IMG/VR virus record: IMGVR_UViG_3300017788_000032 | Coordinates: 1 to 54,252 of that record | Direction: 5' to 3' (one strand) | From: a virus | Lineage: Duplodnaviria; Caudoviricetes | DNA: 54,252 bases | In this document: in pieces, positions 336 through 54,189 of the stretch | Position numbering within the stretch: the first letter of the stretch is position 1 | Layout: each line of letters starts with the position of its first letter | The notes under the pieces: model-generated | Seen by the model: the letters and a program-made list of their open reading frames with translations, nothing else | What the model was told of the DNA's origin: nothing | Databases searched by the model: none | Made by a program: the position numbers and the translations under genes

Positions 336-1028
336 TGCACTGGTTAGCAAGAAGTTTGCAACATAACTAGAATTATCACTGTCAAGTTCAAGAATTTCTA
401 AGCTTTTAATTTTTTCTTCTTCAGAAACAGACAATTGTGAACTATTTACTAGATGAAAATTTTCAAAATTAAATACTGAATCGGGTAAAATTGTGAGTTT
501 TAAATTAAACACGTTTAATGCAAGATTACCATTTACTACAGTAACTGAAGGATAAAAAGTAGTTATGTTTTGTGATTCTGGGTAATACGTGTATGATACC
601 GGTGTATCGATAGGGAGACCAGAATCTAGAAACGCTACATTATTAGGTAATATATTGGCAACTAATCCTTTTTCAATATTAACAATTTCATTATTATCAT
701 CAAAATCATATACTATTTTTAATGTAGAATAATAAGTGTTATCAATACCGGACGGTATTACAGTAAGAGTAGTAGCTCCTTTAAAGCTGCCTAAATCTGC
801 ACTAAGAGCGGTATTAGAAATAGGGTAGCCCCAAGGGAATATTAATCCCCCGTTTGCAGTAAATGGATAAACAAATGTGCCTGTAGTTTCTGAGAACAAA
901 CTACCGGTAGCTGTTGTGGGATATAAAATGGAAGTATCATATACCGGATCAACAAATAAATAATGGTTTATTATTGACGGTTGTCCAGCTTCTTGTACGC
1001 TGGACAAAACGTAAGACACAGAATTCAC
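1..1028 (-). CDS. Thr/Pro-repeat (mucin-like) putative virion protein, truncated by the window edge
   Basis: Not in the ORF track because it has no stop in the window. Open frame from GTG at 1028 ([18 protein letters not shown]...) runs into [14 protein letters not shown]...[11 protein letters not shown] up to base 1. TAAATA lies 5 nt upstream of the GTG. Confidence 0.8.
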
Positions 1029-1068
1029 ATTATTATTTACTAAAAATACACTGAAATATACTTATAAA

Positions 1069-2727
1069 CTAATTCTCTTTTCTTAAATTACCTTTATAAA
1101 AATCAAATCTATTATGTTCTATAGGAGAAAGTAATAAAACAGACCCTTTTAACTGATCTTTTTTAGTCAACTGATACATATAGGACATCCAAGTTTGTTC
1201 AAAGGGAGCTGCCCATTTCGTAGTTAAAAACATCTTTTTATTACCTTTTTTAGATACTATTTGAGGCCAATTGCAGTAATATATCTCACCATCTATATAG
1301 CTAAGTCCTTCTAATGTTTTAATATTTTTAAATTGTGTAAGAGGCGCATTGGGATCCAATCCCATTTTAGGCAGTTTTCTATTATTTGGCCAAAACTGCT
1401 CTCTTACATTTTGCGGTACATTATACCACGACCATTGAGTAGAATTATCGCCAAAAAACTCAGAATAAGAGAATTTAAGAAAATCGAACTCTTCTTTATC
1501 CATTATTTTAACTAGCTTATAAAAAAGATTATCTGTATAGCGGGCAAAGCCATTCTTACAAGGGGGATCCGTTTTTTCACACAAATTCATATCATCCTCT
1601 AAAAACATATAATACTTAGAATTTGTCTCATCAAAATGTTCCGCAATAAATTGTCTACCCCCGCAAATACCTATATTATTTTTCTTTATGCGTTCAAAAT
1701 TATATTTTTCGCAAAGACGAATATACTCAGACTCTGTTTCAAGATCAGTACTATTATCGAGTAAGAAGTTTTTAGTTTCTCTTAAAAATCCCTTTTGCTT
1801 CTCATATGTAGATAGTAACGCCTCAAACTGTTTAGGTGAGTTAAAGGTTATGACATATAAGCTTACACCGGAAAGCTCTTGCTCAACTTTAATATATTCA
1901 TTAATATTAAGATTTTTTAAATCTTCGAAAAATTTAGATAAAAGCCCGTTACCCTCAATTGAAAAGCGTGTAAACAGGTTAGGATGTGTATACGTCATTA
2001 ATGTAAAAATGCTTTCTTCTGTACCCATATACCCATCATTAAGCGTACTATTTAAAAGTGAGTAGTATATCTGATTGATATCGGATATCATTTCTTTAGG
2101 ACCACCGAAAAAGCCAGCTCTACAAACATACTCAACGTTTTTTACGTTGGCAATTTCATTCATCTTACCTCTTGTAAATCCGTGTATCTCACCTCCATCG
2201 GGATAAGGAAAACTCACAAATAAAAACTTTTCTAAAAACAGGGGAAGTTTATCTAAAACTTTATCGTGGGTAAAGTATCCCCAATGTACTGTATTGGTGA
2301 TGCCTGCATCAAGCCAAAAAAGATAATCTGAATTAAACTTATCTAAAATTTTTGCATCATGAAGTAAGAAAACTTTTGACATAACTAGCGGATTATACAT
2401 CTCAAGCTTAGCTTGAGTTGATTCCGCTAACCACCCTGCTTGTCCGTACCATTCAGGGTTGGTTCTAATTTCCTGAATTTTATTATAAAATGGCATACTT
2501 TTAATCCAGTCTAAATCTCGCCTTATAAATTGTGTATTGTCATCACTTCTTCTTTCTTTTACAAAATTTTCAAGCTTCTCATCGCCGAAAATAATAAGAT
2601 TAAAGTCTGCTTTAAATAATTCTGATAGTTTATCTAGGTAGTGATTATAACCGCGAGACCAGCCTTCAGCGAGTTTATCTCTACCTATATCCCAAAGCCC
2701 AGTTACTATTGTATATGTTTTGTTCAT
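1069..2727 (-). CDS. HtrL/YibB(WlaTC)-like domain fused to a GT-A-like glycosyltransferase domain
   Basis: N-half TIVTGLWDIGR...SKVFLLHDA...YLFWLDAG matches the HtrL/YibB pattern. C-half has SLYVITFN...GICGGRQ...YYMFLEDD, a GT2-like acidic motif. Confidence 0.7.
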   Translation of the reverse strand: MNKTYTIVTGLWDIGRDKLAEGWSRGYNHYLDKLSELFKADFNLIIFGDEKLENFVKERRSDDNTQFIRRDLDWIKSMPFYNKIQEIRTNPEWYGQAGWLAESTQAKLEMYNPLVMSKVFLLHDAKILDKFNSDYLFWLDAGITNTVHWGYFTHDKVLDKLPLFLEKFLFVSFPYPDGGEIHGFTRGKMNEIANVKNVEYVCRAGFFGGPKEMISDINQIYYSLLNSTLNDGYMGTEESIFTLMTYTHPNLFTRFSIEGNGLLSKFFEDLKNLNINEYIKVEQELSGVSLYVITFNSPKQFEALLSTYEKQKGFLRETKNFLLDNSTDLETESEYIRLCEKYNFERIKKNNIGICGGRQFIAEHFDETNSKYYMFLEDDMNLCEKTDPPCKNGFARYTDNLFYKLVKIMDKEEFDFLKFSYSEFFGDNSTQWSWYNVPQNVREQFWPNNRKLPKMGLDPNAPLTQFKNIKTLEGLSYIDGEIYYCNWPQIVSKKGNKKMFLTTKWAAPFEQTWMSYMYQLTKKDQLKGSVLLLSPIEHNRFDFYKGNLRKEN

Positions 2728-4316
2728 TTATTATCAGAGTTATAAACTATATATTTGTCAGTATAAACAAAATCTAGACCACAATCTAACATTTTAAGCG
2801 CATCTTTATATGAATTTATAAGGGGTTTACCGTTTACATTAAAAGATGTATTAAGGAGAACGCCTATGCCTGAGTGTTTTTCAAATTCGGTAATTAAATC
2901 ATAAACCTTTTCATTCTGTTCACGTGTAACTGTTTGCAATCTAGCAGTACCATCAACATGAGTAATAGCAGATAGTTTTTCTTTCCATTCATCTTTAACT
3001 TTTGCATAAAAGCTCATAAATCTGCTCTCACCTTTCCAATAAAAATACTTTTCTACATCTTCTAACCGTACAATAGGCGCAAAAGGTCTAAACCATTCAC
3101 GCTTTTTTACCTTTTCATTTAAAATGTCCTTCATTCCCGGTATAGAAGGATTGCACATTATACTTCTATTACCTAATGCACGAGGCCCGTGTTCTGAATT
3201 ACCCCAAATAGTTCCTATAATTCTTCCTTCCGCTAAAAGCTTTGCAGCTTTTTCTAATGTATAAGGGTCAGTCCATTTACTTTCTATAAGCTCAAAAAAT
3301 GCATTGGGATCTATTGGAGGAAGCCCACCGTATGTCACATCAACTTGCTCTAAAGGTTTTTCAAAATCTAGAAGCATGCCTAGAGCTAGCCCACAATCAT
3401 TTGAATTTGGAGCTACAAAAACATCTCTGCCTGTTTTTTCTTTTAATTTAGTATTAAGAACAACATTTAAAGCGCATCCCCCTGTAATACAAATAGGTAA
3501 ATTTTTAAAATGATCTAGATAGGGCTCGATAATCTCAAAAAATACTTCTTCGAAAGCTTGCTGCGACGTTGTAGATAAATCTAATGATATATCACCTTCG
3601 AAGCGGTTACTGCTATCAAAGGTAATGCCAAGCTTTGTTCCTAAATCTTTTAAATAGCCTTCTATAATATTACCGTCGGGTTTTTTATAGTAAAACTCTT
3701 TAATATGAGGTAACCACTCATTTCTCACTTTACCATAGCCACAAAGACCCATTAATTTACCGGAATACACTAAATTACCTATGTTAATATCTGATTCAAA
3801 ATTAATATGACTACAATAGTGTCCAAAAATCATATATGCATAGCCCATATCAATATTATGACGAGCTATTTCTATGACACCGCCCTCTCGTGTAGCTGTG
3901 TATATATTAAAAAACCCGTCACTGCCACCGCCGTCAAAGCTTATTATTAATGCTTCAGTAAAGGGAGACTGGTAAAACGTACCTGCAGCATGTGCACGGT
4001 GGTGAAGGCAGGGTATATGGTTTTTCGCATTAATATATCTTTCAAAATAAAATTTTTCTAAACCGTTATCTGTACCGTAAACAACATCAGTGTTAGAAAA
4101 AATACAATTATCATAATCGTTATCTAAATTAAACTCTGTTTTTAAATAAGACATAATACCATCAAAAACTGTCTTAGCATTTCTACAAAGCCTATACTGT
4201 ACCATACCAAGGTTCTTTTTATTAGCAAATCTTTCTACTTCTAAAACACGATACCTACCATCATGCTTAAACGCAAAGCCACCGTTATGTGACCCGTAAA
4301 AAGCTATATTTTTCAT
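2724..4316 (-). CDS. O-carbamoyltransferase, NodU/CmcH/TobZ family
   Basis: HHRAHAA, DGGG, GKLMGL, GGCALN, EHGPRALGNRS, KKREWFRPFAP, HVDGTARLQTV and LNTSFN motifs. Confidence 0.93.
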   Translation of the reverse strand: MKNIAFYGSHNGGFAFKHDGRYRVLEVERFANKKNLGMVQYRLCRNAKTVFDGIMSYLKTEFNLDNDYDNCIFSNTDVVYGTDNGLEKFYFERYINAKNHIPCLHHRAHAAGTFYQSPFTEALIISFDGGGSDGFFNIYTATREGGVIEIARHNIDMGYAYMIFGHYCSHINFESDINIGNLVYSGKLMGLCGYGKVRNEWLPHIKEFYYKKPDGNIIEGYLKDLGTKLGITFDSSNRFEGDISLDLSTTSQQAFEEVFFEIIEPYLDHFKNLPICITGGCALNVVLNTKLKEKTGRDVFVAPNSNDCGLALGMLLDFEKPLEQVDVTYGGLPPIDPNAFFELIESKWTDPYTLEKAAKLLAEGRIIGTIWGNSEHGPRALGNRSIMCNPSIPGMKDILNEKVKKREWFRPFAPIVRLEDVEKYFYWKGESRFMSFYAKVKDEWKEKLSAITHVDGTARLQTVTREQNEKVYDLITEFEKHSGIGVLLNTSFNVNGKPLINSYKDALKMLDCGLDFVYTDKYIVYNSDNK

Positions 4317-4861
4317 TTCTTAATATATGCTACTTGATAATAAACTTTATCGCCAACATCAATTTTTACGCTTATATCCTTATTATCAAGATTTAATATT
4401 TTAAGTTCAGGATAAAGCTTTTCCATAGACTCGAAATTTAATGTAGGTTGTAAGTGACGTTCATAAACATTACCAAAAACAACATCTTGCGGTAAATTTA
4501 ATGGCACTACAGCAAGAAACTCTTTTACTCTATTGAGATATTTGTCAATAACAGTTCTTGCATCAGTCTCAGAGAGGTGCTCTAGCGTATCACCCATAAT
4601 TATAATATCGTAATCAAATTCAGAAAACTCAAAATCAATAATGTTACCTAAAAATAAATTATTATATTTTTGTTTCAACCCATACTTCTCTATATAAGGT
4701 TCAAAAATTTCTATGCCATCAATATCGCTAAAATAATTCTTTAATAAATCACAATATGTTCCTTCACCGGCACCTACATCTAAAATCTTTGACGAGGCAG
4801 GAAACGTATTTGTAAGATACTTAACAATATCTGTTCTTAAGTAAGGCCAACTACCAGGCAT
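4313..4861 (-). CDS. Class I SAM-dependent methyltransferase
   Basis: ILDVGAGEG motif I, DGIEIF, YDIIIMGDTLEHL. Confidence 0.88.
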   Translation of the reverse strand: MPGSWPYLRTDIVKYLTNTFPASSKILDVGAGEGTYCDLLKNYFSDIDGIEIFEPYIEKYGLKQKYNNLFLGNIIDFEFSEFDYDIIIMGDTLEHLSETDARTVIDKYLNRVKEFLAVVPLNLPQDVVFGNVYERHLQPTLNFESMEKLYPELKILNLDNKDISVKIDVGDKVYYQVAYIKK

Positions 4862-4871
4862 ATATTATATA

Positions 4872-5717
4872 CTACGAGACAAGAAATCTTCCATATGTGG
4901 GGTGTAATGAAGTAATATTAAATTCATTTAAGATATTTTTAATAAATGTTGCACCTCTAACATTAAGATAGATATTAAATAGACCATGCCTAACTCCTTC
5001 GACATATTGTACTATAAAAAAAGTATTAATATCTTTTTCATCTAATTCATCATAAGCTTTAAAATTTGAACATAATTTCTTATACCCGTAAATATTGTCG
5101 TTTTGCCATAATGTATATTTTTCTGTGCTAGGTATAATTTCTCTTCTTAACATCTTATTATCATAAAGTACTGAATTGTCAAAATCATGTAAGGTAATGC
5201 CTTTATTGTGTTCTAGTACTTTAAGAAGCGTTTCTTTTCTCCAAATACAGGGCTGAACAGAGCACATATATTGAAAATTATCTGGTATACAAAAAAGCTC
5301 GTCATTAAAAATTGATTGCTGATAAAGCTGCCAATTTTTTGATTTAGGATGACATGATGAAAAGCTAAAAAAATCTATATTATCACTATTCATAAGGTTA
5401 AGCAAATTCTCTAGATTTTTATAATCTATATCTCTAGATAAAAAATAATCATCACAAAAAAAGAAAATATATTTTTCGTCTATTTTAGATAAAGCATTTA
5501 TTAATGAGTAGGTAAAGTGACCGCCATTGCCTTGAAAATGCACATTTGTATCTATCACTGTAACAGTATCGTTTTTTTCAATCCTTACACCGTCGTTATT
5601 CGTAATAACAGTAAGGGGTATTTTATTTTGTGTATGCTTATAAAAAAGCTTTATAAAAAGATTTGCAATAGGAATGTATAGTTGATTGGTATAGCAAACG
5701 TATCTTAAGCTATTCAT
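4872..5717 (-). CDS. Putative glycosyltransferase (GT-A-like)
   Basis: YIFFFCDDYFL acidic motif, QPCIWRKETL, and position in the GT cluster. Confidence 0.6.
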   Translation of the reverse strand: MNSLRYVCYTNQLYIPIANLFIKLFYKHTQNKIPLTVITNNDGVRIEKNDTVTVIDTNVHFQGNGGHFTYSLINALSKIDEKYIFFFCDDYFLSRDIDYKNLENLLNLMNSDNIDFFSFSSCHPKSKNWQLYQQSIFNDELFCIPDNFQYMCSVQPCIWRKETLLKVLEHNKGITLHDFDNSVLYDNKMLRREIIPSTEKYTLWQNDNIYGYKKLCSNFKAYDELDEKDINTFFIVQYVEGVRHGLFNIYLNVRGATFIKNILNEFNITSLHPTYGRFLVS

Positions 5718-6508
5718 TGATGCTCGGTAGGATGACCTATTTTATATCCGTTGGGGGTAACTATATCACTTAATACGGTACCGCAAAACTGTATGTCAAA
5801 AGCTTTGAATCCGGCAACATGCGCTGCAACACCTATTTCAAACCCTTCCGCCCAAGTACCCCAAGTATATTCTTTATTAGCTAAAAAGTCATGTAATTTT
5901 TTCCACTCTTCATAAAACTTTAAAATTTGATTATTTTTGTTTTCAAAAACAAAAAAGTATTCTGCAGGGAGACCTGCTCCATTCCATTCATTATGCGAAC
6001 CAGGCTGTAACTCAAACGCTTTTATTTTATGCCAAAATATATTTGGTTGAGGGTTTGTGGCTAGTTTATCGAAATATTCAGCTTTTACTGGGCCTAGCTT
6101 TAAATCGGCCCGAGGAGCAAAGAAATTAAAACCTTTAGACGTTTTATCTAGAAGATATGTTTCAATTACCTCGGTATTCCAATTTCTTATTGAATTGTCA
6201 CAATCAGTAAAGTAAATATAATCAGCCTGTACGTGCTCAAACGGCTTTAAGCAAATATATCTCATATTAAAATTAAAATCAGATGCTCCTTTACCGGGGC
6301 CAATAAAAAGTCTTATCTTAAAATCGTTTCTATCAATTTTTTGAATTATTATTCTATCGGTTTTAAATTTTTCCTCAATAACCTCAGGCAAATCTGTTGC
6401 AACAACTATTGACGCAGGTGTTTTATTAAGAACATCATCTGCAAACCTTAAAAAATAATCTGTTGTATAGTTTTTACCGAGGCTTAGTGTTGCAAAGCAA
6501 TGTTTCAT
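5714..6508 (-). CDS. Putative glycosyltransferase (DxD motif)
   Basis: FATLSLGKNY...VVATD...YIYFTDCD, GT-A-like layout; 4-nt overlaps with both neighbours. Confidence 0.5.
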   Translation of the reverse strand: MKHCFATLSLGKNYTTDYFLRFADDVLNKTPASIVVATDLPEVIEEKFKTDRIIIQKIDRNDFKIRLFIGPGKGASDFNFNMRYICLKPFEHVQADYIYFTDCDNSIRNWNTEVIETYLLDKTSKGFNFFAPRADLKLGPVKAEYFDKLATNPQPNIFWHKIKAFELQPGSHNEWNGAGLPAEYFFVFENKNNQILKFYEEWKKLHDFLANKEYTWGTWAEGFEIGVAAHVAGFKAFDIQFCGTVLSDIVTPNGYKIGHPTEHQ

Positions 6509-7458: not shown

Positions 7459-7462
7459 TAGA

Positions 7463-14356: not shown

Positions 14357-14364
14357 TTAAATAT

Positions 14365-17300
14365 TTAATTGTTATATGTTATGTCGCTACCACTTAAGAA
14401 CAATCTAAGTCCTTTAGTTAATTCGTAACTGAGCATATTTTGCATTATACCGTTGTCTTTTGACCAATCTTTAAAAGAGCTATTACTAAAACTTAGAGTT
14501 GTTAGCGGGTTGTCCCAATCTATTGTATTATTTTTATAAGAATTTTCAAATTGCGGCATATATGTAAAGAAATTATAATAATCGCTAATTCTATTACCAG
14601 ATAACCCTAAAGGAGCAATTAATCCCCACCCCCAATCATAGCTATATGCAGAAAGCTTTAGCTCCGTACCAACGGGGTAGTTATAAATGGCTAAATTATT
14701 AACTAACTTATAAATCCCTGAAAATAATTCGTAAGAAACTATTGGTATGCCAGAAGAAATACTGCTTGTAAGTGTGGAAAGCTGGGTTCCAAGATTATTA
14801 GGATTAACATTTATTACACCTGTGCCCGGTGTATAGAAATTTAATTGATATTTGTTTCTTTCTCCCCAAAGTTTTTTATGCTTAACAGATAAAATGTTAA
14901 CTAATCTCTTTAGTTGAGGTGGGAATGGGTAGTTATATTGTTCAAACTGTATTGAGAGTTCATTACAGAATGAAAGCAATTGCTCTAAATTAACTAAATC
15001 GATATCTGCAGTATTACTTACATAGTTAGCTATTTTTTCATAAACAGTTTTTCCGAGCTCATAAGGCTGGGCTGTAAGACCTCCTACTATAGTTCCTAAG
15101 AAATCACCAAAAAATACATTTTTTTCTTCTAAACTCTCTGTAAATATAAAAGATTTATAAAAAGCTTTTGCATCAAAATCTTCATTTATTTTGTACATAG
15201 CATAAGCACCAGAAGTAGGAAGAATATTAAAATTATTTGATTGACCTGTAATAGTCCTATATGCTGTTGTTAAGGCCATATTTTTGTTAATCCATCTGCT
15301 TCCTAGCCAGTCCCCGTATGCTTGGAAAAGCTGATCTTCAAACGTAGAAAGAATATTCATATCATTTTGCGGAGGAAATACTAGATCAACATAAGGTAAT
15401 TCGCTTTCAGATGAGACGGGTGGGGCAAGAGTGTCTATAAAATACATCTTATTAGTAAAGTTATTAATCACCCAAATAAAAGATGCAGTGTCTGATGCAA
15501 TACCGCCAATACTACCTATGTAGTTTGTAAAGTTACCGGATCCTGCAAGATAATTAGTTCTATTACCATCAGCAGCACTTACTCTAGTCAATGTGTCTTT
15601 GTCCTGTACAACCCAGGCGTTTTGATAACCGTCAACAGTAAGATTGCCGATAAAATTGAACCCGGTTAAAGGGTATCCTGTCACTAAAGTGCCTGCAGTA
15701 GTAAATTTATATAGATAATCGTTTTTACCGGTCAACCCACTTACATGATTGTTATTGTAATTATATGCAGTTACCCAAACATTTTTATTTCTATCTACAA
15801 CTGCTTCTACAGGTGTTATTAGTTGAGGAAAAGGTATTACAGTAAGAAGAGAGCCGTAAGTGTTATATTTAACTAAAAAGTTAGAAGCAGGGTGAGTATA
15901 AGTTACCCATACATTACTATCGGAATCAGTATCTATACTTGAAGGTAGAAATAAATTTTCACCGGCAAAACCGCTTAATATAGGTATATTATAATCGCCA
16001 CTTAAATAATAGACGAAATTAGACGCTTGAGGGTAAGCCACCGCTTTTACATATCCTTTTTCTGCATCTATCTTAATACAAGATACGGAATCGAATAAAG
16101 CTATCCATAAATCGCTACTCGGATCTAATGAAACGCTTCCAGGAGCAGCACTAGATAATATTGGAGAAAGTAAATTTGTATAGATAATATTGCTACCCGA
16201 TAATACTGGGTAAGAAGATAAACTAAAAGCAGAAAGAACGTTTCCTGAGGCATCAAATTTAAAAATATTATCGCTCGTACCGTCAGCAAACCAGGTTTGA
16301 TAGTCTAATCCCGGTCCATTACCAGAAGGAGCTACCTGTATAGCATATACATTCCTATTACCATTTGAATTAAAAAAGTCTTTTCTTGCTGAAATGGTAG
16401 TTGTTAGGTATCCGGGGCAAAAACTATAAATTTGTTGTCTAAAAAATCTTAAGAGCATATTAAATTGAGGTACTGCTATCCACCCTATAAGGGTATCCTT
16501 AGGAAAATTTAACGGGTCTATTACGTCTACAGAAGCTGTTAATAGACAATTATAAGTTACCTCAGGAGATACGAGATACCCCTTATAAAAAGCTCCAATT
16601 GATTGTGGTATGTCAGGACTAAAATCCTCATAAAATTTGATATCGTCTTTAAACTTGTAGCCGGAGGATGTATCTTCTACTAACCCAAACCTAACATTAA
16701 AAGCGGAAAGAGAGGAAATATAGGGGTATATTGTAGAGGAAGATAGGGGTGGATAGGTTTTAGTTGTAAAATTATCAATATCTTTCATTCTAATAACAAA
16801 GGGTATTTCAGTGTTTTGCCAGCTTATTTCTGGAAAAAAGAACTTAGTAGACGAAAGAGTCCCTTCACCGTCTATTCCGGTTGTAGTAATTGAAAGTTTT
16901 TCAGCAGGGTTATGTCTAACTTTAATAATAGGCAATACTGCGGGTTTTAAATTTTGAAAGCCGTAGGGCGGATATGACATGAATTCATAGGAATTATTAT
17001 AAAGAGAATACTTGTCATTAAATTTAGAGCTATCAAAAGTTGCAAATACAAATATCGGAGGTTCGCGAGATGAAAAGTTTTTAGCAGTATCATCTACATA
17101 ATAAAAGCTAGCTGAACCGGTAGTACCTGCAAAAACGCTACCTTCGTCATTTTTATTACAAATAAAAATATCATTATTCTGTACTTTAGCATATACTTCT
17201 TGATTAGATGTTTTAATTCTATCCACTAAAACATACTCTCTAATATTCCCCAATCTTTGTTCTTCATAAAAACGACTTAATGCTCTTAAGTGCGACCATT

Positions 17301-20168: not shown

Positions 20169-20227
20169 TATTTATACAACTTTATTTCTTTAAAACCTGG
20201 TTTTATTAATGATATAAACAATAAATA
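20169..20227. promoter_or_regulatory. Divergent pair of T4-late-type promoters
   Basis: TATAAATA (minus, 20176-20169) is 5 nt before GTG 20163; TAAATA (plus, 20222-20227) is 6 nt before ATG 20234. Confidence 0.7.
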
Positions 20228-22231: not shown

Positions 22232-22272
22232 AGTATAATATGAGTTTATAAAAGATCAATAGGCTATAAATA
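22232..22272. promoter_or_regulatory. Divergent promoters: sigma70-like (minus, dut) and late-type (plus)
   Basis: TTGATC-16-TATACT-6-ATG(22225) on minus; TATAAATA 22265-22272, then 5 nt to ATG 22278 on plus. Confidence 0.7.
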
Positions 22273-26817: not shown

Positions 26818-26837
26818 GTAGATATTTATCTTAAGAA

Positions 26838-28181: not shown

Positions 28182-28189
28182 ATTATTAC

Positions 28190-30004
28190 TTAATATCTAG
28201 ATATCCAAGATAGATCTTTTCTAAAATCTAAATTAGAAGATGCTTTTTCTTGTAATACCATGTTATTAGAAGAATTTTGTACAACAACATTGTTGTTATT
28301 TTCCTTGTCATTTATTGCTTTCAGAACATCTATGTTTTGCATCATTAATTTTTGTTCATTTTGATGGACTTGTAATGTTGTTGATGCATATTTTTCAAAA
28401 GCTTTACTTAAATCCCTTACAGTTCTATTTAGCTCATCTAAAGATTGAGCAGGCATACTTTCCCTATCCTGTAAAAGCTTTTCTATTGGCCCGCCTTCTT
28501 TTAAGGCTAAAATTTCATCCTGTTGATCGAATCTGTAAGCCTGTCTACCTGTAAATAATGTTCTATCAGATGTTGAGGTGAGATCGCCTACATCTTTAAC
28601 TTCTACCTCTTTTTCTGACGACTTAAATCCTAACTTATCCTTTATCCAATCTTTAATATTATCTAGGTTAAATATGTTAGAAATTACATCTACCACCCCT
28701 TTTACAAAACCTAAAATCTTATCCATTAAAAAGCTACCAAGTTTTTTAATTTCTTCTGCAATATCAAATTTTTCAAAATATTCAGTTATTTTTTTACCCA
28801 AGTCTTTATTAAACCAACCTATAATCCAACCAAATATTTTACCGGGTATGCCTATAGCAAAAGATTGAATTTGATTAAAGATTTGACCTATACCTTCAAT
28901 CCATTTACCCTCTCTAAAAGGTTTAAATATTTTTTCAATTCTATCCCTTATTTCATCAAACTTAATCAAGTCTAATCCAAATATTTCAAAAATATCAAAA
29001 AAGTTTAATATACCTTTTACAAGTCCTGTTACCATTTTTTGTAAAAATGATTTATCCTTTAATTTTGGATCTGTAAATGCTTGAAATAGCCCAACTCCGA
29101 CCTCAAATAATGCCATCAAAGGTGCGAGTATTTTACCAAAAAGTCTGCCAACTTTTAATCCGAAGCTGAAAAAACTTCCTAATTGTGATAAAAAGCCTGT
29201 AAAGACTTTTAAAGCACCGGTAGGTATCATTTTACCGAGTTTAAATTTTTCAAAAAATGAAATTAAAGGTTTAAAAAACGATTTTACTTTACCAAATAAG
29301 TTTTTAACCGATTCAAATATAGATAAAGCTCTAGCTTTTGCAGTATCAAAAACGCTTTTTAAAGTTTTTATAATTGTAGAATCTTTAAACGCTGCTTTCC
29401 ATCCTAGTACTGTTTGTTTTACGGAGTCGAAAAATCCTTTTATAAGTTTTGCTATTTTTGTTTCTTTTAAAGCTTTTATGCCTGCTAATATCTTTAATTT
29501 TATACTATTAAATAATCCCCTTATAAATTTACCGATACTTGTATCTTTAAAAATATTATATAAAATTTTAAATGAATTTTTAAGAAAACTAAAAAACTTT
29601 TTTACTTGTTCTATGAATCCTAATACTGCACCAATAATAAACCCTATTACAAATGCTAAAATAAAGAATAGTTTTGCCCAGGGTCCTTTTTTAGGATCAG
29701 GTTTTTCAACGTCCACTTTAAATGAAAATAAATCTTTAAAAGTCTTTCTTAAATCTTTTTGCCCTTCCGTGGTAAGCCCGTCTATGGAAATTGGTACAGC
29801 TTGAAGCACTCTTTGTTTTTGTTTAAATCGTCTAAATCTTGCTTTATCTTCTTTTTCTTCCGGAAATAATGCTTCTTTCAGAGACTTTAAAGCTGTAATA
29901 TCAGGCTTTTCATCACCTTTATTTTTTAATAAATTTTCAACTAAAAAGTTAAACTTAGAGCTAATATCTCCATCGCCGCCTAAAGGCATAGCATCACCGT
30001 TCAT
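28190..30004 (-). CDS. Tape measure protein candidate (gp29-like)
   Basis: 604 aa of amphipathic Lys/Phe-rich helices with a hydrophobic segment and C-terminal NNNVVVQN; position in the tail module. Confidence 0.6.
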   Translation of the reverse strand: MNGDAMPLGGDGDISSKFNFLVENLLKNKGDEKPDITALKSLKEALFPEEKEDKARFRRFKQKQRVLQAVPISIDGLTTEGQKDLRKTFKDLFSFKVDVEKPDPKKGPWAKLFFILAFVIGFIIGAVLGFIEQVKKFFSFLKNSFKILYNIFKDTSIGKFIRGLFNSIKLKILAGIKALKETKIAKLIKGFFDSVKQTVLGWKAAFKDSTIIKTLKSVFDTAKARALSIFESVKNLFGKVKSFFKPLISFFEKFKLGKMIPTGALKVFTGFLSQLGSFFSFGLKVGRLFGKILAPLMALFEVGVGLFQAFTDPKLKDKSFLQKMVTGLVKGILNFFDIFEIFGLDLIKFDEIRDRIEKIFKPFREGKWIEGIGQIFNQIQSFAIGIPGKIFGWIIGWFNKDLGKKITEYFEKFDIAEEIKKLGSFLMDKILGFVKGVVDVISNIFNLDNIKDWIKDKLGFKSSEKEVEVKDVGDLTSTSDRTLFTGRQAYRFDQQDEILALKEGGPIEKLLQDRESMPAQSLDELNRTVRDLSKAFEKYASTTLQVHQNEQKLMMQNIDVLKAINDKENNNNVVVQNSSNNMVLQEKASSNLDFRKDLSWISRY

Positions 30005-30031
30005 TATTAATATTTAAAGAAAAAAGTACGT

Positions 30032-30786: not shown

Positions 30787-31629
30787 CTATTTATTAGGAG
30801 ATAATGGGTTTGCAATGCTTGCTTTACTCTGCTCTTTTTCTAATTTACTCATTTCTGTTTCATAAATGTTGGCTAAAACCATATTTTCTGCCAAAGTATT
30901 ATTGTCAAGATATTCCGGGGTGTAAAATAGTTTACTGACTAAAATATATTGTAATTCTAAAATACTCTTTAAATTTGCATTATACAACGCTTTAAGTATT
31001 TCCAGTAAAGAGAGATTGTAAGGTGAAAGTGTTACGCGTTGTTCATTTTTTTTACCCACTTCTAAAACTAATGTTTTAAAAGATTCGTTAATTTCATCAC
31101 TAAATGTTTTAATATGCTTGGTAATTTCAGCAGGTAGCATGTCATAAAGATCTTGTCTATTAGAAGGGTAGACAATCTCTTTACCATCAAAAAATACTTG
31201 AGAAATTGAGTCATAAAACACATCATACAAAGTTTCAAATTGTAAGAGTTTGGGCAGAGTTACTCTTACTTCAGCTTTATCTATTTTAATGGTTTTAGTA
31301 AATTCTGTTTTAAAATCTAAACATTTTTTAAGAAATGGTAGTAAGGAAAACTTAGCAGAAAGCGGGCCCTCCTTATATTCAATATCTGGAGATATGCATG
31401 TACATCTCAAAAGAAAGAGTGCACAAAATTTATCAAAATTTGTAAGTTTATAAAATTTGTCGGAATCAAGAATTGACTCTTCTAATATTTTATCAAAATA
31501 TTCAGCAATATGATCGTTATTATTATTAATTAAAAACTTATTAAGAGTCTTATATTGACTAAAAGTTATTTCTTTAACCTTTAGTTTTTCTCCTAACGTA
31601 GGGGCGTCAAAATTTATATAAAATGGCAT
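30787..31629 (-). CDS. Second gp26-like baseplate assembly protein (possibly with gp51-like C-terminus)
   Basis: PTLGEKLKVKEITFSQYK...LTNFDKFCALFLLRCTCI parallels the neighbouring gene. Confidence 0.45.
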   Translation of the reverse strand: MPFYINFDAPTLGEKLKVKEITFSQYKTLNKFLINNNNDHIAEYFDKILEESILDSDKFYKLTNFDKFCALFLLRCTCISPDIEYKEGPLSAKFSLLPFLKKCLDFKTEFTKTIKIDKAEVRVTLPKLLQFETLYDVFYDSISQVFFDGKEIVYPSNRQDLYDMLPAEITKHIKTFSDEINESFKTLVLEVGKKNEQRVTLSPYNLSLLEILKALYNANLKSILELQYILVSKLFYTPEYLDNNTLAENMVLANIYETEMSKLEKEQSKASIANPLSPNK

Positions 31630-32537: not shown

Positions 32538-32553
32538 CTAATTATTTAATAAC

Positions 32554-33102: not shown

Positions 33103-33117
33103 AAAATTATTTATCTA

Positions 33118-35415: not shown

Positions 35416-35421
35416 TATTTA
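35416..35421 (-). promoter_or_regulatory. T4-late-type promoter for tail sheath
   Basis: TAAATA, then 6 nt to ATG 35409. The same arrangement precedes gp19 (33108-33113) and 32537 (32543-32548). Confidence 0.7.
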
Positions 35422-37128: not shown

Positions 37129-37140
37129 TAAATTATTTAA

Positions 37141-39333: not shown

Positions 39334-39341
39334 TATAAATA
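39334..39341 (+). promoter_or_regulatory. T4-late-type promoter in the 20-bp divergent gap
   Basis: TATAAATA, then 6 nt to ATG 39348. Confidence 0.7.
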
Positions 39342-40287: not shown

Positions 40288-40318
40288 AGGGCCTAAGTCA
40301 AATTAGGCCCTTTTTTTT
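40288..40318 (+). terminator. Rho-independent terminator
   Basis: AGGGCCTAA-gtcaaa-TTAGGCCCT hairpin running into a T8 tract. Confidence 0.9.
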
Positions 40319-40332
40319 GCTTAAATATCTAT

Positions 40333-40654: not shown

Positions 40655-41380
40655 ATGTCTACACAATATTATACCGGTAATGTAGATCCGAAAGTATATC
40701 CATTTACTTTTGTAGATAATCCCTGTTTTAGATATACTGATAAAGGTAAAAATGCAGATGAAAGAAATATAATTTCTAATTATTGGAGAGAGCAAATTAA
40801 TCTTTATGGTCAGAAAGTCGGTTACATAGTTAATAATACTACTACTTTAAGTGCTGATATGTTATATGGTGAACAACCTACTCAACACTATGCACCTCCA
40901 CAAGATATAATTATAGCAATTAATTTAAATGAAAATGCGTTAATGTTGAGTAAATTTGGTTTAGTATCGGATGATGAAGTAACAGCATTTGTTCATATAA
41001 GTGCATTTTATGATACTTTTGGATATGGTGCAGAGCCTAAGTCAGGAGATTTATTCCAGCTAGTAGAATATGGAAATGACCGTCCCGGGGGAAGAAATGG
41101 TAACATTTATGAGATAACTCAAAGACTTGATCAAGATATTGCACAAATTAATCCATTGATGGGTCATTATCTTTGGTTAATAAAAGCCAAGCGTTTTGAG
41201 TACTCCTTCGAACCGGGTGTTACTCCCGAAGCACAAAACCAACAAGTGTTTGATGATACTGTTCGTCCGGGTGTCTCCGGTGCAGAAAAAAATTATAATT
41301 ATGACGTCAATAATACATCTAAAACCATTTTTGATTACTCACAAACAGATTATTCAAACGTATATGGAGGTTATCAATAA
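40655..41380 (+). CDS. gp14: Neck/head-completion protein, T4 gp14-like
   Basis: EQINLYGQKVGYI, MLYGE, LSKFGLVSDDE, EPKSGDL, FEYS. Confidence 0.78.
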   Translation: MSTQYYTGNVDPKVYPFTFVDNPCFRYTDKGKNADERNIISNYWREQINLYGQKVGYIVNNTTTLSADMLYGEQPTQHYAPPQDIIIAINLNENALMLSKFGLVSDDEVTAFVHISAFYDTFGYGAEPKSGDLFQLVEYGNDRPGGRNGNIYEITQRLDQDIAQINPLMGHYLWLIKAKRFEYSFEPGVTPEAQNQQVFDDTVRPGVSGAEKNYNYDVNNTSKTIFDYSQTDYSNVYGGYQ

Positions 41381-41389
41381 ATATTTGCT

Positions 41390-43788: not shown

Positions 43789-43824
43789 TAAATTATTTAT
43801 TCATTTGATAATAAATAATAATAT

Positions 43825-45247: not shown

Positions 45248-45253
45248 AGTTAT

Positions 45254-45281
45254 AGTATAGTAAAAAAATAAGCTAAAACAA
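45254..45281 (-). promoter_or_regulatory. sigma70-like promoter of primase
   Basis: TTGTTT-16-TATACT-6-GTG. Confidence 0.6.
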
Positions 45282-45283
45282 GA

Positions 45284-45475: not shown

Positions 45476-45489
45476 AAAGTTATTTATAT

Positions 45490-46624: not shown

Positions 46625-46951
46625 TTAATCTCCAGAGCTATCTCTGGTACTATTATACAAAAACTTATTTAAAAGTGCTCCCAAGGAATCAGCTTCCTGT
46701 TGATTATGAGCTGATATCATTGAAATAGGCTCGCCCTCAAAATTATAGCCGAGCAAAATAAAACAATTTAAAAATTCTAATATTTGACTAGTTAAAGCGT
46801 CTAAATCTTTTTTATTTGAAACTTTGTCTTTAATTTGCTCTCTTAAAAACGATACTAAAGCCTTGTGAGTAAGTTCTTTAACTTCCTTATTTTCATTAGG
46901 ATTAAAGTTGTTATCACTATTTTTCTTAGACGACTTTTTGTCCTTCATCAT
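46625..46951 (-). CDS. Hypothetical protein
   Basis: 108-aa ORF in the replication operon. Confidence 0.6.
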   Translation of the reverse strand: MMKDKKSSKKNSDNNFNPNENKEVKELTHKALVSFLREQIKDKVSNKKDLDALTSQILEFLNCFILLGYNFEGEPISMISAHNQQEADSLGALLNKFLYNSTRDSSGD

Positions 46952-47300
46952 AATTATTTAATCTTTTTGACAAGTATCTATCGCGTCCCTGATAATGAGA
47001 GTTGTTTGAAACACCATGTCTTATCAAGTAATCAACAATGACTTCGATACTATCGGTTTTAATGTAGAAGTTTTTAGGTATTCTTTTGCCGCCGTCATGT
47101 ATTTCAAATAGCGTTTCATTAATATTATCTCTATTAGTATAGCAAGTAATAAGTACTGAAGCCTCGCTTGGATTGACCATAATCGTCCATTGACGGGGAT
47201 CTGATTTATTATAAATGTTAAATAGCTTAATTACAATAAAGCCGTTATCGCGTAAACGCTTTATGAAATAACTAGGTGTTCTGAGTTTATTCCTGCTCAT
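46926..47300 (-). CDS. Hypothetical protein
   Basis: 124-aa ORF coupled (TAATG) to the clamp gene. Confidence 0.65.
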   Translation of the reverse strand: MSRNKLRTPSYFIKRLRDNGFIVIKLFNIYNKSDPRQWTIMVNPSEASVLITCYTNRDNINETLFEIHDGGKRIPKNFYIKTDSIEVIVDYLIRHGVSNNSHYQGRDRYLSKRLNNYDEGQKVV

Positions 47301-48031: not shown

Positions 48032-48062
48032 TACATTTATAATAACCTGTGATTCTCAACAA

Positions 48063-48485
48063 TCAATCGTTATTTAAAAGCTTATCTAATTTTTTAGAAA
48101 TAATATCTAATTTATAGTAAATGTCATCAATATCGGTTTGCTTAAAATTGAAAGTAAGTTGATCGGGATTTTCTGCAATAACATTTTCAATTTGCTGATG
48201 TACTAGCTGTTGACCATGAACCGGTTGAGCAATAGGAGGTTGAACATTAATACCGGCGTTAACTGTTGTATGTATTGGGTTTTGATAAGCAGGGGGTCTG
48301 ACCACTCTAGGAGCAGGGATTGTGTTAACCACTCTCTCAGGGTCAATTGTCATGCCGCGAAGAGTTTGATTTTGGCTTACAATATTTTTATTAAGCTCTT
48401 TAAGATCACCAATAAGATGTTGGCCCATAAATTGTATGGTAGCCAACCTTATTTCTTCAGGTGTAGGTTCTGAAAAAGTATCCAT
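48063..48485 (-). CDS. Hypothetical protein
   Basis: 140-aa ORF with Pro/Gln-rich middle, a QLTFNF motif and a short coiled-coil-like end. Confidence 0.6.
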   Translation of the reverse strand: MDTFSEPTPEEIRLATIQFMGQHLIGDLKELNKNIVSQNQTLRGMTIDPERVVNTIPAPRVVRPPAYQNPIHTTVNAGINVQPPIAQPVHGQQLVHQQIENVIAENPDQLTFNFKQTDIDDIYYKLDIISKKLDKLLNND

Positions 48486-49330
48486 TATAGATCTTTAAGA
48501 AGTTCAGAAATCTTCTCATCGTCTTCGGCTTCTACTTTCTTTGAAGTAGTCACGTTAACGACGGGAGCAGGTGCTGAGGTTTTCTTAACAGACTCAACAA
48601 CGGCATCTTCTTCTACATCCTTTGTACCGTGATAATGAGTATCGAGAGTTTCCTTAAGCTCATCGTAGCTCTTCACCGAAACATAAGACTCGAGATCAAA
48701 TGCACTGTTATAGATCTTTTTAAAGGAATCTTCATCTAAGCCTTCAATTTCTTTCGATGTGGAAAACTTAGATGAGACGTATGTAGGATAATCGCCTTGC
48801 TTTTCAACCTTAATCTTAAGATTACATCCCTTAGGAGAAAGATCAAAAATACGGGGGCCGAGCTCTGAGGCTTCCTCGCCTTCAATGGCGTCCATAATAA
48901 TCTTGTGAAGCTGGCGGCCAAAGCGAAGAAGCTTTACTTTACCGTTATTATCTTGATTGACGGGGTCGTTTACAACATATACATTTACTAGCCAATTCTC
49001 TCTACGCTTAATTGCTAAAGCCTTTTCCTTTTCCTTTTCAGTACCAGTGCGAAGTACACGATATCGCTCTTCAGCAATAGGATCTCTCTGATTCCAAGTC
49101 GTCGGGCTAACTAGTGTAATGAGTTGACCGGTAGTAAGGCTGTTCCAGCCGTATGAATAGTAATGAAAAAATGTCTTTGCAGGGTCTTTAACATTAGGGA
49201 GTAATCTAACTGTATAAGTGTTACCGACCTCGCAACGAAGATAATCCTTTACTTTAGAAGAAGTCGACTCACTATTTTTGCTTAACGCGCCCTTAATGCT
49301 CTCAAACATCGAATTGGTAAATGTACTCAT
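48485..49330 (-). CDS. gp32: Single-stranded DNA-binding protein, T4 gp32-like
   Basis: TVRLLP, KRRENWLVNVYVVNDP...NNGKVKLLRFG, IFD...GCNLKIK, YVSSKF, KSYDELK, acidic tail. Confidence 0.92.
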   Translation of the reverse strand: MSTFTNSMFESIKGALSKNSESTSSKVKDYLRCEVGNTYTVRLLPNVKDPAKTFFHYYSYGWNSLTTGQLITLVSPTTWNQRDPIAEERYRVLRTGTEKEKEKALAIKRRENWLVNVYVVNDPVNQDNNGKVKLLRFGRQLHKIIMDAIEGEEASELGPRIFDLSPKGCNLKIKVEKQGDYPTYVSSKFSTSKEIEGLDEDSFKKIYNSAFDLESYVSVKSYDELKETLDTHYHGTKDVEEDAVVESVKKTSAPAPVVNVTTSKKVEAEDDEKISELLKDL

Positions 49331-49336
49331 AGTAAT

Positions 49337-49365
49337 ATAGTAGTATGTTCTTTCTATTAAATCAA
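49337..49365 (-). promoter_or_regulatory. sigma70-like promoter of gp32
   Basis: TTGATT-17-TACTAT-6-ATG. Confidence 0.65.
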
Positions 49366-50018
49366 GCTTTATTTATAATTTTTTTTAGGCCAAGCTCTAC
49401 TAATTTGCCTGCTTTTTTAGAATTGTAGAGTTTTGTTCTAAAAAAGGATATATTGTTATATGTTTCTTCACCAAGTATAAACTTTACAACTTCAGCATCT
49501 CTTGACTTTAATCTTCTTTCAAAATCAGGAAACCCAAATAAAACAAATAAGCTTATGTCATGATTTTTGAGGTGAATAATGAATGACAATTCATTATTTG
49601 TCATATGATTGACATAATTTAATACATTAATATTTCTATCTTTACAAAAATTATAAATAAACACTAACGATTTTTTTATACCGTTCAGCTGTTCTTCAGA
49701 ATCTGGATCTTGAAGCAATTGTTTTTTATTAAAAAGAGTATACGTCTTAGTAGCTTTTAGTGAATGAAAATATTCTAAAGGAAAATAAGTTTCATCTGGA
49801 TATAATGCGAACGGAGCTTTAAAAAATTCTTCAAGTTTAATTTGTGGATATCTTTTTAAAAAAGATGAAACTTTTTTTAGAGCCACAAAGCTCTTTTCAT
49901 CTAATTTTTCAAAATCTTTTCTAAACTTAAAGGGTTGGTTATTACTAGACCTTGAAACCTTTAAATATGTATTATAAACGCGTTTATCGAACTCAGTAAT
50001 CAATTGTAATATTTCCAC
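49362..50018 (-). CDS. Hypothetical basic protein (possible gp59-like helicase loader)
   Basis: 218 aa, basic, immediately upstream of gp32 as gp59 is in T4. The functional call rests on size and position only. Confidence 0.4.
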   Translation of the reverse strand: MEILQLITEFDKRVYNTYLKVSRSSNNQPFKFRKDFEKLDEKSFVALKKVSSFLKRYPQIKLEEFFKAPFALYPDETYFPLEYFHSLKATKTYTLFNKKQLLQDPDSEEQLNGIKKSLVFIYNFCKDRNINVLNYVNHMTNNELSFIIHLKNHDISLFVLFGFPDFERRLKSRDAEVVKFILGEETYNNISFFRTKLYNSKKAGKLVELGLKKIINKA

Positions 50019-50212
50019 TTATTACGAGACAATTCTTTTTTTACCCTTCTTAATGCACTAGGCTTGTAATAACATCTCTTTAGACGCAATTCATCTATTA
50101 CTCCGGATTTTAAAAATTCTCTGCTAAACTTATTATATGCTCTATCAAAATAAGCTTTATCTGTACTTTTCTTTTTGTCCAACTTTACATATGCATTAAC
50201 TACTTTACTCAT
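50000..50212 (-). CDS. rpsU: Ribosomal protein bS21 homologue
   Basis: FDRAYNKFSREFLKSGVIDELRLKRCYYKPSALRRVKK follows the bS21 pattern; 70 aa, basic. Confidence 0.8.
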   Translation of the reverse strand: MSKVVNAYVKLDKKKSTDKAYFDRAYNKFSREFLKSGVIDELRLKRCYYKPSALRRVKKELSRNKWKYYN

Positions 50213-50530: not shown

Positions 50531-51857
50531 TCAATTGTCTATAGCGAGTTTGGATAGGGTATTTATAGAAGAGGTACTAGCTTCAGTGTCATTTATATGT
50601 TCATCCTCGGTTATTGTCAACGTAGAATAGTCTATTCTCATAGCGCAATGTCCAAAATTTGGACCGAACCGGTTCTTCATAAAGCCCATTTTAATAACCC
50701 CTAATTCTTTATCTGTGTCTTCTTGCCAAATACTCAAAATAACGTCGCCTGTCATGGCCAACCCTATACTTTCTGATATTGTCTTTAAGCCAGGATCTGT
50801 CGTCTCATATCCTTCTCTATTAAGCTGTGTGGCTGATATAATAGGACAATTAAATGTATATGATAAGGCTCGTAACTGCTCAGTGCATATTTTGATTCTC
50901 TCATAACTACTATCACCCATAGGGGCTCTTAATAAGTTGACATAATCGAGAACTACTGCATCAATTGTTATTCCCTTTTGAATTAGTTTTTTAACAAATG
51001 CTCTTAAATGGTTGGCTGTAATTGTTGCAGGTGGAAACTCTTTAATAATAATTTTAGAGTTTGGCTTCTCTACACAATACTCAGATATCTGACTTTTAAG
51101 AGTTTCAGATTCTATCTTAAGCTGGCTTAAAGGTATCTTAGAGACACTGGAGCATAGTCTTTTTGCATATATAAGTTCAGGCATTTCAAGAGAAACAAGT
51201 AAAACAGTTTTACCTTGATTAGCAATATTAACTGCAACGTTACCAAGAAATATACTCTTACCAATATTTGTTTCCCCGGCAAACATGTAAAGGGCTCTCC
51301 CTTCTTCAAGGAATCCCCCACCAATCTTATCATCTAGCCATTTCCATCCCGAGGGAATATATTTTTCTGAAGAGTTTAAATCATTTATAACTTTATCAAT
51401 ATCTACAAACAAGTCTAATCCAATTTCTGTAGTAAGCGAAAGACTACAAGCTTTTTCAAATTTTTCTAAAATACGAGAAGTGTCGACTTCATTTTTATTG
51501 ATATCATCTACTACTTCCATCATTGTATGGTAGACAGATTTTTCTTTTAAAAATGTTTCTGTATTAGCTGAAAGTTCATCAACATTTATATTTTTATCAA
51601 TATTATTAAAAAGCGTGACAACATTTTTTAATGAAAGCTTTAACTCATCGGTTGTAAGATAAGCTTTAATTTCAGTAATTGTGGGTTTGGTATTTCTCTT
51701 TTCGTAAAAGTCTAATAATGGTAAAAATAGCTTTAATATCTTTGTTCTTGAAATACAAAGGCTTTATATAATCAATAATTGAAGCTAGATACGTCTCATC
51801 GGTAAGCGATTTGTACGCAATAATAGTCTCAAAATAATCTAGATCTAATTTAGCCAT
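50531..51857 (-). CDS. gp41: Replicative helicase, T4 gp41/DnaB-like, split by an apparent frameshift near 51712
   Basis: GETNIGKS, SLEM, IKEFP, LDYVNL, SATQLNR, ISESIG, KNRFG. N-terminal ORF 51672-51857 joins an open frame DFYEKRNTKPT... leading into ORF 50531-51523. Confidence 0.92.
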
Positions 51858-51863
51858 TAACTA

Positions 51864-51891
51864 ATAATATATTATTATTCCAACTAATCAA
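51864..51891 (-). promoter_or_regulatory. sigma70-like promoter of helicase
   Basis: TTGATT-16-TATTAT-6-ATG. Confidence 0.65.
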
Positions 51892-53251: not shown

Positions 53252-53258
53252 ATTAATT

Positions 53259-53298
53259 ACCTCCTAATTTATTATATGATAAAGAATAAATAATTCAA
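53259..53298 (-). promoter_or_regulatory. sigma70-like promoter plus Shine-Dalgarno, overlapping a divergent late promoter
   Basis: TTGAAT-16-TATAAT-5-AGGAGGT-7-ATT on minus; TAAATA 53287-53292, then 7 nt to ATG 53300 on plus. Confidence 0.75.
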
Positions 53299-53299
53299 G

Positions 53300-54189
53300 A
53301 TGAACAAAGACTCAAAGTTTATTTTTGAAGCTTATTTAGCTAAAAAACAAATAGTCTCAGAAGCACCTATATATGCTGACGACTTAAAATATACCGGGGA
53401 CATTGAAAAAGCTCCTGGCAAAGGCTATGGTATCGGTAAGGTTGCTGCAAAAGAAGGTAAAACTAAGGCAGAAGTGGCTAATAGAGTTTTAGACGCAATA
53501 AAAACAAAGCTGTTTAAACCCGCTGCTCACACCATAGATGGTAATGAATATCAGCTCTATTATCCCGGTAGTAAGATGAAGTTTAGAACAGATTTGGAAA
53601 ATCTTATTAAGAATGAATTAAAGCTTGGCGGTACAGAAGCAAAATATACTGCAAGAATTGTGGATAATCTACTAAATGTATTGAGGGTAGATGTTGAGGG
53701 CGGTACAGCTGCAAATCCTGCTCAAGTTAAACAAGCGGTCGTTTCTGGTGTTGAAGGCAAATCTGTTGCAAAAGGCCCTCAAAGCGCGCCCTCGGCTCCT
53801 GTAGCTAATAATTTTGTAAAAAATGATGTTAGATTTATAAAAGAATGGATGCCTATTTTTAGTGAACTTCCAGATGAAATCTCTGTTGCAAAGGGAGACA
53901 TTTATGATTCACCAGAACTTAGAAAAGAAGTAGAAGAAGCAATTACCCGTGCTTATGATGTAAAAATGGCAAGCGACAAAGAGCTTGTACAAGATTTTAT
54001 CGACTCATTAAAATACAAGGGTAGTTATTCGCCTGCGGCAGAAAAAGCCGCAGAAGGTGAAGGTACAGGTGAAGCGCCCACGGTTATGAATATCCTGAAG
54101 ACGACGACGTAACTGGTACACTCAGAGATATGGGTGCAATTGGTGGTCGCCGTGGCTTTGATCCGGGTGGATTTAGCTATGGAGACTAA
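53300..54189 (+). CDS. Hypothetical late protein, probable frameshift near 54085
   Basis: The ORF track ends at 54112. An adjacent frame EYPEDDDVTG...FSYGD* ends at 54189, 2 nt before the next ATG. N-terminus MNKDSKFIFEAY. Confidence 0.7.

Follow-up and report, generated by a model that had tools for sequence, protein, structure and literature searches.

What does it mean when a late-promoter-like hexamer stands almost against the start codon of one phage gene after another? The question is raised by IMG/VR record IMGVR_UViG_3300017788_000032, a stretch of 54,252 bases with a G+C content of 30-40% (hereafter the window), in which TAAATA recurs a few nucleotides (nt) before start codons. T4-type core genes, identified by PHROGs and Pfam scans of the 57 open reading frames (ORFs) of the window, together with a remote match to the nearest named phage, Pelagibacter phage HTVC008M (tail sheath 38% identical across 41% of the query), indicate that the window is a fragment of an uncultured, distant T4-like myovirus. 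An earlier, sequence-only reading of this DNA held that transcription of the late genes starts on or next to the first base of the start codon, which would leave the late messenger RNAs (mRNAs) leaderless. We arrive at a similar view, with a probability of roughly three in four: TAAATA would be the core of T4-type (gp55) late promoters, at a distance that would make the start codon the first codon of each late mRNA, right at its 5' end.

Genes were defined by our own greedy longest-ORF calls, which yielded 57 genes; ORF 46-366, lying inside a longer ORF of the opposite strand, was excluded, and the open-ended ORF 3-1028 was included. TAAATA begins 13 to 11 nt upstream of the first base of the start codon (-13 to -11) in 19 of these genes, 15 of which start with ATG and four with GTG (1028, 20163, 32537 and 43788). 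The box begins 11 nt upstream in 11 genes, 12 nt in six and 13 nt in two, and in four cases (20163, 22278, 39348 and 45475) it forms part of the full T4 octamer TATAAATA. All 20 starts named in the sequence-only reading have the box with a spacer of 5-7 nt, 19 as TAAATA and one, at 28181, as TAAGTA (Table 1). The positional enrichment over shuffled AT-matched sequence, which that reading had set as a check, was also found, as 10,000 shuffles of the -40 to -1 segment of each gene gave 0.48 such genes on average and never more than 4, and shuffles restricted to -20 to -1 gave 0.86 on average and at most 6. Internal ATGs have a box at the same distance in 4 of 876 cases. Moreover, the complete window holds fewer copies of the hexamer than expected, 100 on both strands against 148.5 +/- 10.7 in 100 dinucleotide shuffles, so that the peak at start codons is not a product of AT-rich background. 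The observation is therefore confirmed as real and well beyond chance. A further likely case is gene 46625-46951, which starts with ATGATG and whose box begins 12 nt upstream of the second ATG; this arrangement recurs in 17 related genes. Three same-strand pairs have a box that runs into the end of the preceding gene, and at 14356 and 41390 the TAA of the box is the stop codon of that gene. Divergent starts lie as close as 20 bp (39327/39348), 36 bp (43788/43825) and 70 bp (20163/20234).

We then turned to related genomes. An IMG/VR scan with the sheath protein retrieved 75 loci at 62-80% identity; of their 925 called genes, 407 carry a box that begins between -13 and -11 (-11, n=263; -12, n=135; -13, n=9). 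The same holds for 40 of the 173 called genes of a 157,857-base relative, G001, which was covered in eight stretches and treated separately. Apparent additional offset classes at -15/-16, -9 and -53 were rejected, being accounted for by TAAATAAATA boxes in tandem, by the ATGATG gene and by a second box further upstream of one gene, respectively. With these minor peaks resolved, the spacing is limited to two adjacent positions and a rare third. The start codons themselves appear to be correctly placed in the sheath gene, since the tblastn match starts at residue 1-3 in 63 of the 75 loci and is clipped by a contig end in almost all others.

Of 284 unique upstream sequences with a box, 211 lead into ATG, 73 into GTG and none into TTG. 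T stands at -1 in 64-75% of the sequences of both main classes (-11 and -12), and the base at +1 is always a purine; a pyrimidine at -1 followed by a purine at +1 looks like the signature of a transcription start. The base preceding the box is A or T in at least 90%, and upstream of the box the information content stays at or below 0.6 bits at most positions, reaching 0.88 at the adjoining base in the -12 class. No conserved -35 element accompanies the late boxes, TTGNNN-N16-18 occurring with box genes only twice and at unrelated offsets. As a separate observation, GTG starts are nearly confined to the 5-nt spacer (69 of 184 unique sequences, vs 4 of 92 with the 6-nt spacer), a bias which may stem from a few orthologous families or may reflect a real constraint.

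Counted from the transcription start, the T4 late promoter TATAAATA occupies -13 to -6 (Nolan et al. 2006, PMC1524935), and it is described as an 8-bp TATA box about one helical turn before the start, followed by an AT-rich segment and lacking a -35 element (Geiduschek and Kassavetis 2010, PMC2988020). On this scale TAAATA spans -11 to -6, and in genes of the -11 class +1 would thus fall on the A or G of the start codon. Two further lines of evidence point to a promoter. Inside genes, TAAATA is depleted on both strands relative to synonymous-codon shuffles, both in the window (sense, 31 vs 50.9 +/- 5.6; antisense, 41 vs 61.4 +/- 5.9) and in G001 (sense, 73 vs 133 +/- 8.9; antisense, 107 vs 151 +/- 10.5), while none of seven control hexamers of the same composition is depleted on both strands. 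Antisense depletion argues for a signal read at the DNA level, as a signal in RNA would not predict it. In addition, the genes with a box are virion genes (sheath, tube, baseplate and fibre) and the replication genes are without it; G001 departs from this virion-only pattern with PhoH and the small ribonucleotide reductase subunit, which carry the box. No other late-box peak was found further upstream of the window genes.

The sequence-only reading had suggested looking for a gp55-like sigma factor elsewhere in the genome. The late sigma factor gp55 is encoded in all five large related contigs, 42-47% identical to gp55 of HTVC008M, and the G001 protein matches phrog_234, 'late sigma transcription factor' (1.4e-26). 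Gene order would place gp55 a few kilobases (kb), about 9 kb, past the end of the window, and the fragment itself is without it. Overall, all the sequence-level tests that were run agree with a +1 on or next to the start codon. Beyond this, we infer that the T4 start-site distance is valid for the gp55 holoenzyme of this clade, that the mRNAs are leaderless, and how they would be translated.

The case was in fact understated by the sequence-only reading, as host-type promoters on early genes are likewise fused to start codons. Of the 38 non-box window genes, 10 are preceded by the pattern TTGNNN-N16-18-TANNNT with a -10 hexamer whose first base lies between -13 and -10, six of them at -12, and only three matches lie at other offsets within 80 nt of starts; G001 has the same sigma70-like peak, with 10 matches at -12. 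Since the distance at which sigma70-type promoters start transcription is well known, the shared offset is an independent pointer to +1 on the start codon, and by this geometry early and replication mRNAs should be leaderless too. Such promoters stand before the starts at 8731, 22225, 42554, 43390, 45247, 48031, 49330 and 51857, all on the minus strand and belonging to early and replication genes; about 6 nt separate the -10 hexamer from the start codon, and the -35 consensus resembles TTGAT(T). A generic sigma70 consensus scan of 26-46 kb was set aside as uninformative (84 sites vs 79.5 +/- 9.0 in shuffles). In AT-rich DNA with no generic excess of such sites, only position relative to start codons is informative.

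On the translation side, the claim that the spacer leaves no room for a Shine-Dalgarno sequence was borne out, as GGAG, GAGG, AGGA or AAGG occurs at -18 to -4 in none of the 18 box genes scored, and Shine-Dalgarno words precede none of the 40 box genes of G001. GGAG or GAGG is found in only two of the 38 non-box window genes. Half of the latter (19 of 38) overlap the upstream gene or lie within 4 nt of it; such close packing holds for most of the genes outside both promoter classes and suggests translational coupling.

The window also encodes a ribosomal protein bS21, which all five large relatives (5/5) share at 48-76% identity; identity to bS21 of HTVC008M is only 33% over 40 residues. In a preprint on the leaderless lambda cI mRNA (PMC10491246), bS21 is connected with the position of the anti-Shine-Dalgarno region, and Chen et al. 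(2022, PMC9723584) suggest a role for phage bS21 in selecting phage transcripts at late stages of infection. As a hypothesis only, bS21 could be a translation-side partner of the leaderless design. It was rejected as a specific marker of this design, since HTVC008M has bS21 yet mostly Shine-Dalgarno leaders, and bS21 alone therefore does not mark it. A scan of the protein against genome contigs found no relative, and solved structures gave weak, similar matches to the bS21 of many bacteria (best E 6.8e-5), with no clue to the host.

A comparison with known systems sets the layout apart. In the 75-125 kb stretch of T4, which has 53 annotated genes, 12 of 14 matches to TATAAATA begin 22-36 nt upstream of the start codon (the others at -81 and -142), with GGAG/AGGA leaders in between, whereas in the window the box begins 11-13 nt before the start codon with no Shine-Dalgarno sequence; the layout is indeed unlike T4, as the sequence-only reading had stated. 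Other traits are shared, namely the TAAATA core (as the full octamer in 4/19), the missing -35 element, the AT-rich segment after the box, the position before virion genes, gp55, which the relatives encode, and, in the window, a gp44 clamp loader. This loader, whose identification is clear, belongs to the T4 late-transcription and replication machinery. Unlike in T4, the first two octamer positions are weakly conserved, and there is about one box per late gene, T4 operons being longer.

HTVC008M shares the T4-like core genes, bS21 and gp55 with this clade, but its genes mostly have leaders of the AAGGAG type. Among 41 of the 60 annotated features of the 50-100 kb stretch, hand-chosen from the plus strand, GGAG or GAGG precedes 15 starts, compared with the 2/38 given above, and TAAATA stands at -13 to -11 (at -11) before two. 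Since the layout is present there only in traces, the fused arrangement appears to be a property of the clade studied here. Zaragoza-Solas et al. (2020, PMC7029224) describe their prediction of late promoters in pelagimyophages as unsuccessful.

A parallel is offered by leaderless bacterial and phage mRNAs, such as that of lambda cI from pRM (PMC10491246), with which the window shares a -10-type element placed 5-7 nt before ATG/GTG and the lack of a Shine-Dalgarno sequence. Unlike in leaderless bacterial and phage mRNAs, the late -10-type element here would be read by the phage sigma factor gp55 and not by a host sigma factor, and the 5' ends are predicted from promoter geometry; unlike single leaderless genes, the design spans most of the promoters of the phage. 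GeneMarkS-2 reportedly models leaderless-rich bacteria by a -10 box at a fixed distance before the start codon. In poxviruses, the TAAATG initiator of late promoters overlaps the start codon, leaving the message almost without a templated leader, and late mRNAs gain a slipped poly(A) head. The late core fused to ATG is similar, but polymerase, host domain and mechanism are unrelated, so that this is an analogy only. A full-text literature search (supplements and subscription-only papers being outside its scope) found no description of gp55-type promoters fused to start codons. Thus, T4-type late transcription and leaderless translation are each textbook knowledge, and their combination is undescribed in the literature searched.

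Taken as a mechanism, a gp55-type promoter would have RNA polymerase begin at the A or G of the start codon or no more than 1-2 nt away from it, and each late gene or short gene group would give its own mRNA with the start codon as its 5' end. This mRNA would be translated without a Shine-Dalgarno sequence, presumably with ribosome and initiator tRNA binding directly to the AUG or GUG at the 5' end, and early and replication genes would follow the same design with host sigma70-like promoters. As only the first codon of a transcript could be used in this way, each late gene would need a promoter of its own.

Several points weigh against this mechanism. The box-to-start distance is borrowed from T4 and assumed for the clade, and if it is fixed, the -12 and -13 classes (8 of the 19 genes, with spacers of 6-7 nt) would have leaders of 1-2 nt. 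As to the machinery, gp55 was not found in the 54 kb fragment itself, the gp45 candidate at 47300-48031 is only weak (Table 1), and gp33 was named in no PHROGs scan of the window or of 117 of the 173 G001 genes, none of these searches being aimed at gp33. GUG is a poor start codon on leaderless mRNA in Escherichia coli, and four of the 19 box genes have it. The major capsid gene of G001 (L088:10776-12281) is without TAAATA at -13 to -11, in contrast to most head genes nearby, so that one abundant late protein, at the least, is expressed in another way. Furthermore, terminator-like sites are not enriched in 26-46 kb (14 vs 10.7 +/- 3.3 in shuffles); read-through RNAs would consequently hold these start codons internally without a Shine-Dalgarno sequence, where they would be translated somehow or wasted. 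Finally, the gene starts rest on longest-ORF calling with no trained gene finder, and the 75 loci are orthologous sets, whose counts are not independent events.

Other explanations were weighed on the same evidence. TAAATA could act in RNA, as an AU-rich, non-Shine-Dalgarno ribosome-binding or enhancer element (e.g., for S1 or for bS21 ribosomes) on leadered or polycistronic late mRNAs that start elsewhere. The box does occupy the usual Shine-Dalgarno place, bS21 is encoded by the phage and by its five large relatives, and polycistronic RNAs are likely where terminator-like sites are not enriched. However, an RNA signal does not predict an antisense depletion as strong as the sense one, and transcripts that start elsewhere find no late-box peak further upstream to supply them. 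The match to the T4 late box, with gp55 present in the relatives, speaks for a promoter instead, as does the spacing, which at two adjacent positions is narrower than that of ribosome sites. Early genes, moreover, have a different, two-part sigma70-like element at the same distance, which fits promoters and not one ribosome signal. We therefore hold an RNA element to be unlikely.

The boxes could also be late promoters with another start distance in this clade, giving either a short leader or an mRNA that begins inside the called ORF, with the true start codons elsewhere. Such a shift is made conceivable by the divergence of gp55, just 42-47% identical to that of HTVC008M and more distant from that of T4, by the poorly kept first two positions of the T4 octamer, and by a spacer that varies from 5 to 7 nt. 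Still, a distance fixed to the start codon in 75 loci is hard to explain unless the codon is on the RNA and at its end, and true starts elsewhere sit badly with sheath matches that begin at residue 1-3; the mostly T at -1 and invariable purine at +1, as well as the sigma70-like promoters of known geometry, indicate the same +1. A different distance thus seems improbable to us. Chance, finally, can appeal to the roughly 80% A+T of the 20 nt before starts, but shuffling those same 20 nt comes nowhere near the 19 genes observed, TAAATA is under-represented overall, and the layout recurs in 407 of 925 related genes; its share in the explanation is negligible.

If late mRNAs do begin on the start codon, a broader and more speculative picture can be drawn, which we put forward as tentative and, on balance, doubtful. 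The whole clade would express its genes without Shine-Dalgarno sequences, with early and late promoters fused to starts, other genes mostly coupled, and bS21 retuning host ribosomes toward 5'-terminal AUG/GUG or away from Shine-Dalgarno-led host mRNAs, so that takeover of translation would be built into promoter placement. Confirmation of the 5' ends would mean that T4-like phages of a large, abundant aquatic group make their most abundant proteins from leaderless mRNAs. Gene and promoter prediction for these phages would then have to change, a natural system for efficient leaderless initiation in bacteria would be available, and the conserved phage bS21 would acquire a concrete, testable role.

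The coordinates of the late boxes, of host-type promoters and of the main identified genes are collected in Table 1. PHROGs and Pfam also identified a dUTPase gene, as well as gp25-like and other baseplate proteins, among the genes of the window, and no tRNA genes were found in its 54,252 bases. A gp62-like protein is encoded in G001, and the G001 orthologue of gene 47300-48031 is the match that was returned by the clamp search.

Table 1. Late boxes, host-type promoters and identified genes of the window (distances are those between box or -10 hexamer and start codon)
Feature	Position	Strand	Remarks
TAAATA	1034..1039	-	5 nt before GTG 1028; unknown protein, ORF runs off window
TAAATA	14362..14367	-	5 nt before ATG 14356; 1047-residue protein of structural size; TAA of box is stop of upstream gene 14365-17826
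Full TATAAATA	20169..20174	-	5 nt before GTG 20163; gp25-like baseplate wedge
TAAATA	20222..20227	+	6 nt before ATG 20234; divergent partner of 20163
Full TATAAATA	22267..22272	+	5 nt before ATG 22278
TAAATA	26823..26828	-	5 nt before ATG 26817; small baseplate-like protein
Variant TAAGTA	28187..28192	-	5 nt before ATG 28181; TAAGTA also before three G001 genes
TAAATA	30011..30016	-	6 nt before ATG 30004; tape-measure-like protein
TAAATA	30788..30793	-	6 nt before ATG 30781; T4_baseplate family; box overlaps stop codon of upstream gene
TAAATA	32543..32548	-	5 nt before GTG 32537
TAAATA	33108..33113	-	5 nt before ATG 33102; tail tube
TAAATA	35416..35421	-	6 nt before ATG 35409; tail sheath
TAAATA	37134..37139	-	5 nt before ATG 37128; glycine-rich protein
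Full TATAAATA	39336..39341	+	6 nt before ATG 39348; divergent from terminase start 39327
Bidirectional terminator-like hairpin	40288..40311	.	directly before late box of gene 40333
TAAATA	40322..40327	+	5 nt before ATG 40333
TAAATA	41378..41383	+	6 nt before ATG 41390; fibre-like protein; TAA of box is stop of gene 40655-41380
TAAATA	43794..43799	-	5 nt before GTG 43788
TAAATA	43812..43817	+	7 nt before ATG 43825; back to back with 43788 box
Full TATAAATA	45481..45486	-	5 nt before ATG 45475
TAAATA	46955..46960	-	gene 46625-46951, ATGATG start; 3 nt before first ATG, 6 nt before second (46948), which fits the geometry
TAAATA	53287..53292	+	7 nt before ATG 53300
Host-type promoter, primase	45248..45282	-	TTGTTT, spacer, TATACT, 6 nt, GTG 45247
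Host-type promoter, gene 47300-48031	48032..48068	-	TTGATT ... TATTAT, 7 nt, ATG; gene is weak gp45 candidate
Host-type promoter, gp32	49331..49365	-	TTGATT, 17 nt, TACTAT, 6 nt, ATG 49330
gp44-like clamp loader	20820-21758	-	phrog_168, 1.5e-80; Pfam Gp44_lid
Tail sheath	33118-35409	-	PHROGs/Pfam
Large terminase	37141-39327	-	PHROGs/Pfam
Primase	44213-45247	-	PHROGs
Candidate gp45 sliding clamp	47300-48031	-	243 residues; weak, 23% identity to HTVC008M gp45 over 115 residues, E 1e-5
gp32 single-strand-binding protein	48485-49330	-	PHROGs/Pfam
Ribosomal protein bS21	50000-50212	-	PF01165, 2.9e-8; start overlaps end of upstream gene
gp41-type helicase	50531-51523		PHROGs/Pfam

Some differences in gene content were also observed. 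The large terminase has 728 amino acids (aa) in the window vs 568 aa in G001 (L085:8540-10246), and the glycine-rich gene 36133-37128, between the terminase and a tube-like gene, is extra in the window, being missing at that place in G001. Two tail-tube-like paralogues, 32554-33102 and 35450-36103 (minus strand, both phrog_45), lie on either side of the sheath gene; the former has a late box and the latter a TATATT-type element before its ATG. In G001, six tandem paralogues of a tail-collar-fibre-like protein of 180-188 aa (phrog_1800) occupy L089:12129-15491, some with TAAATA or TAAGTA before the ATG and others with TATAAT-like elements. The portal gene of G001 has no TAAATA at -13 to -11, as is the case for its major capsid gene. 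The minus-strand block 1069-8731 encodes sugar- or modification-type enzymes, among them an HtrL/YibB-like protein, a carbamoyltransferase (phrog_1601, 1.3e-119), a methyltransferase and a GlcNAc-type glycosyltransferase (PF11397, 2.6e-67), whose targets may be DNA or the surface of the cell or virion.

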